A DNA stretch of 64,000 nt from Candidatus Heimdallarchaeota archaeon. GTDB taxonomy: Archaea > Asgardarchaeota > Heimdallarchaeia > Heimdallarchaeales > Heimdallarchaeaceae. The stretch lies in assembly GCA_018238545.1 (NCBI GenBank), contig JABCTC010000001.1:32001-96000 (forward strand), written 5' to 3'. Below are positions 10,468 to 11,890 of the stretch, piece by piece. The translations under genes and the position numbers were made by a program. Below the pieces are notes generated by a model, which was not told where the DNA came from, made no database searches, and was given only the letters and a program-made list of their open reading frames with translations. How positions within the stretch are numbered: the first letter of the stretch is position 1; every line of letters starts with the position of its first letter.

Positions 10468-10499
10468 TATGATGCTTATTTGTCTTCTTGTCTTATTAG
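10468..10499 (+). repeat. Terminal inverted repeat, element 1 (tnpB 3' side)
   Basis: TATGATGCTTATTTGTCTTCTTGTCTTATTAG. Confidence 0.8.
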
Positions 10500-10634
10500 A
10501 CAAAGCCAGGTAAATGTCGTGCTTAGAGGTCATGATATAGGGCGAAGACACTCTATACTCACTCTGAGTGGATACATCACGTATCCTCCTACCCCGTTCA
10601 CCCTGCGTTTAGGCAAGGCTTTCGGATCGCTTTT
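10468..10634 (-). ncRNA. Putative omega/reRNA of tnpB element 1
   Basis: 10553-10634 matches 36951-37032 at 81/82 nt; GGATAC-N5-GTATCC hairpin; boundaries uncertain. Confidence 0.6.
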
Positions 10635-11789
10635 TATCAGAATATTATATGCAGCATTAACGTCAGCATTGATCAAGTGACCTTGAGCTGAACAAAACAA
10701 CCCTCGGTGGATCCTTTTCCCTTTGTACTTCTTACGATTACGGGGAAACTCATTATCCAGGAAACTGCTTTTGGAGGTGTATTCTTCAGGAATCGTCTCC
10801 ACCTTTATCCCTTGCTCTGCTCCTTTGTATTTTAGCATATCGATGATTTTAAGGAAGGGGAGGGTGACGAACATCTGGGTGGTTTTCTTCCAGAAATGCA
10901 CTCCTTGTTTCCACAGAGGATTATAGCCTATAATCACTTCATGGAGCCCTCGTTCGACCCACAAGTCTACCAAATACTTGGTTAATTTGTGGATAGCATC
11001 ATTCAGTTTCCTTCTCCACTTTTCTTTGAGCTTATAGTAAGCTGGACCATACTTCAAACGATTGTTTTTTTGCAATTGTTTTCTCTGCTGCTGACTATAC
11101 TGTAGTTGTAATTTTTTCTGTTCTTTCAAATAATATTGTGTAATGGATTTTATCCCTTTCCCTGCATCTTTGATAACAATCGGTCTTCCTCCGAGGTTAT
11201 CCACGAAAGCGGCAAGGTTGTCCATCCCTAAATCTATCGCTCCTTTTCTGATCAACTTCTTCCTGAGATTGGGTATACTCTTCAGATAAACAATTTCAAG
11301 GGTATAGTGAGTTCTTCGGGGAATGATTCTTACTTCTCTTAACTCTGCTTGAGCTGTTAGTCTTGTCTTGTAAGTGTATTTCACTTTCTTCGGCAACACT
11401 AGCCAACCATTAATTATTTTCGCCTGCTGATTGGTGAAGATGGCTACCACTTCCCCATCCTTCTTTTTGTAGTTAGGTGGCTTAGGCATGGCAAAAAACA
11501 GATAAGGTTTCTTCTTCCACTCTTGTTTAGCTCGAAAATAGCTCTTCCAACATCTAGAAAGGAGTTTGAGTGTCTGTTGGGCAACATGAGCGGGAAGGGC
11601 TCTGTAGCACTCCTCTTGTTTCAATTGTCTGTCGAGATCGTAGTAAAAGAGAAGTTTGCTTGTTTGCTTCAAAGAGGTTTTTATCAGAAAATTGGTTCGA
11701 TTATAGAGATTTTTTGCTTGATGACAGATTCTGCTCAGTGCTGGATGATACGCCACTTCTATACGCTCTGCACGCAGTACCTTTGCCAT
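10530..11789 (-). CDS. tnpB: TnpB RNA-guided endonuclease with rearranged RuvC-II
   Basis: GAIDLG (RuvC-I), VIIG in place of the usual Glu, EEYTSK, NADVNAAYNI (RuvC-III). Confidence 0.95.
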   Translation of the reverse strand: MAKVLRAERIEVAYHPALSRICHQAKNLYNRTNFLIKTSLKQTSKLLFYYDLDRQLKQEECYRALPAHVAQQTLKLLSRCWKSYFRAKQEWKKKPYLFFAMPKPPNYKKKDGEVVAIFTNQQAKIINGWLVLPKKVKYTYKTRLTAQAELREVRIIPRRTHYTLEIVYLKSIPNLRKKLIRKGAIDLGMDNLAAFVDNLGGRPIVIKDAGKGIKSITQYYLKEQKKLQLQYSQQQRKQLQKNNRLKYGPAYYKLKEKWRRKLNDAIHKLTKYLVDLWVERGLHEVIIGYNPLWKQGVHFWKKTTQMFVTLPFLKIIDMLKYKGAEQGIKVETIPEEYTSKSSFLDNEFPRNRKKYKGKRIHRGLFCSAQGHLINADVNAAYNILIKSDPKALPKRRVNGVGGYVMYPLRVSIECLRPIS

Positions 11790-11811
11790 CCTTCGTTAAC
11801 CTAGAGTTCAC

Positions 11812-11826
11812 TATAAAAACACCCGT
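11812..11826 (-). promoter_or_regulatory. Putative TATA/BRE promoter of tnpB
   Basis: TTTTATA about 25 nt upstream of the ATG; same motif and spacing in element 2 (38211-38225). Confidence 0.5.
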
Positions 11827-11857
11827 ACTATCACTAAAATGTTACTCAATTTACACA

Positions 11858-11890
11858 CTAATAAGACAAAAAGACAAAAACACATTCATA
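11858..11890 (-). repeat. Terminal inverted repeat, element 1 (tnpB 5' side)
   Basis: Reverse complement reads TATGAATGTGTTTTTGTCTTTTTGTCTTATTAG. Confidence 0.8.

Follow-up and report, generated by a model that had tools for sequence, protein, structure and literature searches.

An inverted-repeat tnpB element of Heimdallarchaeaceae was found to share an AT dinucleotide between its two ends, and two empty sites fit retention of a single AT. We propose, with a probability of roughly 0.55, that it is a non-autonomous OMEGA element, composed of a solo TnpB and its omega RNA, whose movement in trans would depend on a serine recombinase with chemistry like that of IS607. The original prediction had also proposed a non-autonomous family moved in trans, and the absence of a transposase from every copy supports this part of it. 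As that prediction supposed, the host is an Asgard archaeon, its relatives being MAGs of Candidatus Heimdallarchaeota/Heimdallarchaeaceae. The window, the whole stretch of 64,000 nucleotides that was analysed, contains two copies.

Two tnpB elements bounded by imperfect inverted repeats

The features of both copies are listed below.

10469..11889, minus strand: element copy 1, 1421 bp counted with both AT cores
11888..11891, minus strand: TTAT target motif at the left end of copy 1 (predicted TAM), whose last two bases are the AT core
11858..11889, minus strand: left-end inverted repeat of copy 1, with the AT core, a T-tract and two GTC motifs 8 bp apart; hairpin absent
11812..11819, minus strand: archaeal TATA-like box, 23-30 nt upstream of the start codon, conserved in aligned left ends
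10530..11789, minus strand: tnpB of copy 1, 419 aa; intact rearranged RuvC, C4 zinc finger absent
10570..10586, minus strand: predicted stem-loop of the omega RNA, within the 3'-terminal part of the ORF; the loop pairs with the terminal bases of the right end (pseudoknot)
10469..10500, minus strand: right-end inverted repeat of copy 1, with terminal TCAT; doubles as the predicted 3' end of the omega-RNA scaffold
10449..10468, minus strand: host flank, putative guide of copy 1, by analogy with TnpB biology (PMC10055086; 10.1101/2023.11.20.567912)
36867..38300, minus strand: element copy 2, 1434 bp; target ATAT, right end TCAT
36940..38188, minus strand: tnpB of copy 2, with a +1 frameshift near 37356

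The tnpB gene is the only gene between the imperfect inverted repeats of copy 1, as first described. The inverted ends of the two elements matched at 25.5/32 and 25/32 positions; 5000 shuffles gave averages of 15.8 and 14.0 and best scores of 22 and 20, respectively. GTC-N5-GTC occurs in both ends; the GTC motifs with 8-bp spacing first described are located at 10482/10490 and, as GAC, at 11865/11873. The TATA-like box probably serves as the promoter of a leaderless mRNA.

Copy 2 lies 26.4 kb from copy 1 and is about 75% identical to it at the nucleotide level; owing to the frameshift, its ORF (37223-38188) lacks the C-terminal part of RuvC. The second diverged element with the same ends is thus real, but the TA proposed as its outermost dinucleotide is not the shared one. 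The dinucleotide common to both ends is AT (10469-10470 and 11888-11889 in copy 1; 36867-36868 and 38299-38300 in copy 2), and homology between the two copies ends at this AT, one base inside the proposed TA.

Unrelated to the element, the window also contains duplicated promoter or short-gene segments (35093-35150/38321-38378, 12266-12474/15586-15794 and 43327-43418/44103-44194) and a 256-aa ORF at 42501-43271 with a long acidic repeat of 12-bp period.

Junctions and empty sites define an AT core

The host genome, 92% complete, carries about 25 copies, not all of them whole, which together provide some 40 ends, and TnpB homologues are present in 21 of the 23 other genomes of the genus. The originally quoted end consensus does find further copies, but as a pattern it recovers only 10 of about 40 ends. 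Full copies in the host genome are only 86-91% identical to one another, insertions are lineage-specific, and internally deleted derivatives retain both ends. One such derivative (G000:C48:96521-97263) is 743 bp long with both ends intact and a 26/30 inverted match. Two other copies (G000 C73:8593 and C8:28999) are hybrids in which the left end of one subfamily sits on the body of another, which suggests recombination or conversion between copies.

Alignment of the left junctions gave TTAT|RA, with TTAT in 27/31 junctions, ATAT in 3 and CTAT in 1; two further ends lacked AT, which is therefore present in 31/33 left ends. The right junction reads TCAT|N, where N is A in 27, G in 21, T in 8 and C in 6 of 62 distinct junctions. 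The claim that TA is outermost at all ends does not hold, as only 27/62 right flanks start with A; the window reads TA because both of its copies happen to have A after TCAT. A weak symmetry of the target, with purine at +1 in 48/62 (p about 1e-5), is as expected for a dimer acting on double-stranded DNA, and position +2 is A in 38/62 (p about 5e-6). The AT core often supplies a start codon, because 21/62 right flanks begin with G. Three copies (L054, L051 and L045) lie within genes or at gene starts, and an in-frame ATG results when the sequences on either side of them are fused through one AT.

At two empty sites the sequence is consistent with retention of one AT, instead of the TA anticipated in the original prediction. 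The empty site of the C73 copy, identified in the relative G016, contains exactly one AT. On the carboxypeptidase side of copy 1, the sequence of relatives runs on into DNA at the end of contig C18; this sequence (G000:C18:29722) adjoins another left end and is the left flank that originally belonged to the right end on the carboxypeptidase side. Joined with one AT, the carboxypeptidase-side flanks align ungapped with three of four relatives, and the TA model needs a 2-nt gap. Copy 1 as assembled thus joins the flanks of two different insertion sites, through either misassembly or recombination between copies, and the empty site predicted for it does not exist. A search for the empty site of copy 2 did not find one. 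The presence of AT at both termini and of one AT in empty sites supports a shared core, which by sequence looks the same as a 2-bp duplication or an IS200/IS605 junction.

A rearranged TnpB and a predicted pseudoknotted omega RNA

The 419-aa TnpB matches the profiles NF040570, PF01385 and PF07282. Its RuvC residues D186, G288, E335 and D376 are invariant in 18 homologues; Gly288 occupies the position of the canonical RuvC-II Glu, the alternative Glu, E335, lies 47 residues on, and an NADxN motif is present. By these residues the protein is of the common rearranged-RuvC type, RIIr-5/TnpB2, whose rearranged site is active in TvTnpB (PMC10691335, PMC10530073). A very large prokaryotic clade (1135 clusters at E<=1e-30) also has the rearranged RuvC, and imperfect inverted repeats near the ends have been described for IS607 (PMC6188088); neither feature sets the element apart as Fanzor-like, as had been suggested. 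A PDB search with the TnpB returned only ISDra2 TnpB and Cas12f-like proteins, with no Fanzor. Some related TnpBs carry N-terminal fusions resembling AbrB/MazE, winged-helix or SAP domains (P0126 at L220, P0121 at L219, and P0142), and a related solo TnpB with 40% identity (L225:2501-3736) is directly followed by a CRISPR-like repeat array.

A pseudoknotted omega RNA is predicted from covariation to overlap the 3' end of tnpB. A compensatory change affects the stem at 10570-10586, and the loop sequence varies in step with the terminal six bases of the element, giving three combinations (GTGATG-CATCAT, GTGATT-AATCAT and GTGGTG-CACCAT). Since the loop pairs with the right-end terminus, the guide is probably the flank after the right end, which is the ordinary arrangement. 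Plain RNA folding of the omega region gave a z of -1.1, a measure uninformative for a pseudoknot, and a search of Rfam had no match.

Sister families share the AT core and avoid their own target motif at the right end

In Heimdallarchaeia, AT-core ends surround several distant solo-TnpB families, including ones in the genomes G024, G038, G053, G044 and G045. They share one design: AT is followed by 9-12 bases that include a T-tract and then by a motif specific to the family, which recurs in mirror image at the opposite end. A second solo RIIr-type family in the host genome (G000:C62:24427-25611, C78, C80 and C124), 36-40% identical to the window protein, has the target TGAT and inverted TTCCG motifs. 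A third, encoding a 492-aa solo TnpB akin to the aCas1-linked TnpB (G000:C62:60084-61829 and C62:31318-33062), has AT-core inverted ends with a CCC-N5-CCC motif and the target VCAT.

The target motif differs by family (TTAT, VCAT, TGAT or TCAT), and the right end differs from its own target in every family; where the target is TCAT, the right end is TGAT. Such a difference would make sense if the target motif served as the TAM and the element escaped its own nuclease. Left ends scored a mean of 17.4 of 26 against right ends of their own family versus 12.4 across families.

A serine recombinase as the proposed mover

In the mechanism that we propose, a recombinase dimer would bind the two inverted ends and exchange strands across the shared AT, so that the element is excised as a circle and one AT is left behind. 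The circle junction, TC-AT-RA, would then recombine with a similarly shaped target, TT-AT-RA. TnpB would take its guide from the flank beyond the right end and cut the emptied site, which offers the TAM TTAT and a guide match, and repair from the sister chromosome would restore the copy; the right end, TCAT, would present no TAM, sparing the filled site. A serine recombinase acting on a 2-bp core had been among the original suggestions and gives the best fit, with AT in place of TA as the crossover.

The nearest TnpBs with an adjacent transposase (36-44% identity) carry an IS607 serine TnpA, and some of these TnpA-bearing relatives end in AT. A quick IQ-TREE tree, with weak deep support, placed the window clade among solo Heimdall clades near them. 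Among the points against the IS607-like reading, the ends of typical IS607 elements lack symmetry and carry a terminal GG in most cases, and the inner motif varies between families, a variation that one specific enzyme would not easily read.

None of the copies has an adjacent transposase gene. The autonomous, transposase-bearing copy that the original prediction envisaged was not found by end pattern in 82 genomes, in which the right-end matches examined were tnpB elements, deleted derivatives or chance; inspection of the genes flanking about 60 loci and an unbiased scan of the host genome for paired ends did not reveal one either. Contigs of four metagenome assemblies contained no circle or empty-site joint, a weak search as it covered assembled contigs only. 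Viral matches to the end pattern were due to chance and lacked paired ends. The resident IS607 TnpAs were rejected as the mover, having GT or GG cores and other motifs. One autonomous IS607 family of the host genome (G000:C71:12847-15584, C82, C102 and C72), with a 648-aa TnpB-like protein, has the target ACYGT, a GT core and many miniature, internally deleted copies; its junction layout matches that of the window family, which favours the IS607-like reading. Membership of the window family in IS607, judged by its sequence features, is unproven, because a TnpA with matching ends is wanting. Of the serine recombinases considered, an IS607 TnpA that is rare or has been lost is the likelier mover, although by itself it is less likely than not.

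Closed genomes of the same family, G044 and G045, have 23 and 25 TnpB-domain matches and include an AT-core pair of a sister family that is 99.1% identical at different sites. Neither genome has an IS607 TnpA; PF00239 gives only two genes in each, both of them syntenic, conserved serine recombinases with intact catalytic motifs. These miniature recombinases, of 238-250 aa with a catalytic and a recombinase domain, were present in 27/29 other Heimdallarchaeaceae genomes and, with this query, were not found outside the family. A predicted model (pLDDT 77) matches Bxb1-type large serine recombinases over both domains. The host genome has three copies of 238-249 aa (G000:C6:7209-7922, C88:39720-40421 and C26:28982-29686; L005-L007), two being syntenic host genes across Heimdallarchaeaceae and the C26 copy apparently lying in an integrated element.

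By elimination only, the chromosomal miniature large serine recombinases are candidates for the mover, although we regard this as unlikely. Large serine recombinases are usually site-specific, and their conservation here suggests a host job; moreover, the inner motifs are not constant across families, and some families in which the recombinase gene was not found do contain AT-core elements. The wider model, that several distant Heimdallarchaeaceae TnpB lineages are moved by such a chromosomal recombinase and that each TAM fixes which insertions survive, appears unlikely to a similar degree.

Alternative explanations

The alternative that survives best, itself unlikely, is that a DDE or Asgard-Cas1 (aCas1) type integrase binds the inverted ends and duplicates a 2-bp AT, with the TAM bias imposed by TnpB selection. 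The near-equal spacing of motifs from both ends and the family-specific covariation of ends (17.4 vs 12.4 of 26) are TIR-like, and TIR-flanked DDE-TnpB and aCas1-TnpB groups are in print. The published right-end motif of aCas1-TnpB resembles the CACTCAT ends of sister families, and a solo family with the same AT+11 geometry is 30-36% identical to a TnpB beside an aCas1-like gene. Against this, the target is strongly oriented, and PF13358 was not found in six genomes, which together with empty sites that keep AT also disposes of the DDE transposase with TA duplication first suggested. IS5-, IS6-, IS481-like and other DDE elements of the closed genomes have unrelated ends, and the DDE families of the host genome have unrelated or no detectable matching ends. 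We know of no DDE family with a fixed AT duplication. No aCas1 was found in the host genome or three element-rich relatives with the queries used, namely single queries and PF01867 applied to very diverged proteins. The aCas1-like protein of G031 had no homologue in the host genome, and none at near lengths emerged from a protein search; a Cas1 fragment on C36 is a relic without such ends. In G031 (L344 and L351; C565 and C389), an aCas1-like gene of 1500-1600 aa stands head-to-head with a TnpB gene. Elsewhere (L339 and L340; G075:C364 and G074:C48), a 623-aa HTH and Cas1-like protein belongs to a conserved four-gene block with no TnpB nearby.

Peel-and-paste transposition by a Y1 TnpA of the IS200/IS605 kind, with TTAT as target, TCAT as transposon-encoded motif and the inverted repeat incidental, is improbable. 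TTAT/TCAT does resemble published TAM/TEM pairs, element-encoded guides would account for the family-specific targets, and right ends fold modestly (mean z -1.67). Left ends, however, have no hairpin (mean z +0.20, none below -2), a fixed-position DNA guide is absent (best 8/29), and the downstream base bias is unexpected for Y1. Y1 genes are present in G040, G041 and G045 but sit with their own distant TnpBs. In the genus where the family is most abundant, Y1 TnpA occurs in 0/24 genomes, all incomplete MAGs, and it is likewise absent from the closed G044. As the original prediction implied, no Y1 TnpA shares the ends.

Improbable as well is an unrecognised partner enzyme, or a family that no longer transposes and is kept by TnpB-driven homing and gene conversion. 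The limited identity of full host-genome copies (86-91%) and the failure to find a partner accord with it; the 99.1% identical sister-family pair at different sites of a closed genome and the lineage-specific insertions speak against inactivity.

IS630/Tc1/mariner-type cut-and-paste with TA duplication in a Fanzor-like arrangement can scarcely be maintained, because 35/62 right flanks do not give the TA read at all four ends of the window copies and the empty sites fit AT; an IS630-TnpB with symmetric ends does exist, but an IS630/Tc1 gene is absent from the host genome and five relatives, two of them closed, and the PDB search gave no Fanzor.

Implications

Of immediate interest is that a large and precisely bounded solo-TnpB group dominates the repeats of Heimdallarchaeaceae with no evident mover even in closed genomes. 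The analysis yields predicted TAMs for four TnpB families, together with a natural series of right ends that each depart from the target motif of their family. Should a host serine recombinase prove to be the mover, TnpB would gain a partner of a new class and a role would be assigned to a conserved Asgard recombinase; an integrase of 240 aa that makes few demands on its target would, in addition, be of interest as a tool. Publications already describe solo TnpBs that are mobilised in trans as well as TnpBs flanked by inverted ends (PMC10691335); no account of the AT-core group or of its missing partner was encountered in the literature searched.

Comparison with known systems

Fanzor elements (Bao and Jurka 2013; PMC10530073) share a rearranged RuvC and end repeats with the window family, which lacks a TA duplication and an IS630/mariner partner and shows no special sequence tie to them. 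Like IS200/IS605 elements (IS608, ISDra2, ISGst; PMC10055086), the family has a target motif beside the left end, a similar motif inside the right end and a scarless empty site; unlike them, it has no left-end hairpin or guide motif, and no Y1 was found in 24 genomes of its genus. With TvTnpB-type RIIr-5/TnpB2 proteins (PMC10691335, PMC10530073) the window TnpB shares Gly at the RuvC-II Glu, the alternative Glu at +47 and NADxN; its C4 zinc finger, however, is reduced, and its TAM and activity are predicted.

The Asgard aCas1-TnpB systems (Cas1H-Asgard-1/-2, PMC10691335) likewise have an Asgard host, and in a related solo family the end geometry is the same and the right-end letters are similar. 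The window TnpB nevertheless belongs to another lineage, and aCas1 was not found in the host genome with the queries used. A solo tnpB between conserved inverted ends also recalls the solo TnpBs moved in trans and the DDE-associated branches (Altae-Tran 2023, PMC10691335); the window family differs in having neither a DDE gene that shares its ends nor a TA or longer duplication.

Compared with IS607 elements that carry TnpB (IS607, IS1535 and ISC1926, PMC6188088; CboIStron, 10.1101/2023.11.20.567912), the window element has a core of AT rather than GG and nearly symmetric ends with motifs at equal distance, and tnpA is in no copy. At the ends of IS607, imperfect inverted repeats occur together with short direct motifs, and the target is not duplicated (PMC6188088); CboIStron combines a TGGG target and a GG core with the right end TCGG (10.1101/2023.11.20.567912). 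As in these elements, a 2-bp core is shared by both termini and the target, the core forms the 3' half of a 4-nt motif, the right end differs upstream of the core, and repeated motifs and imperfect inverted repeats lie near the ends, with the predicted omega RNA at the right end.
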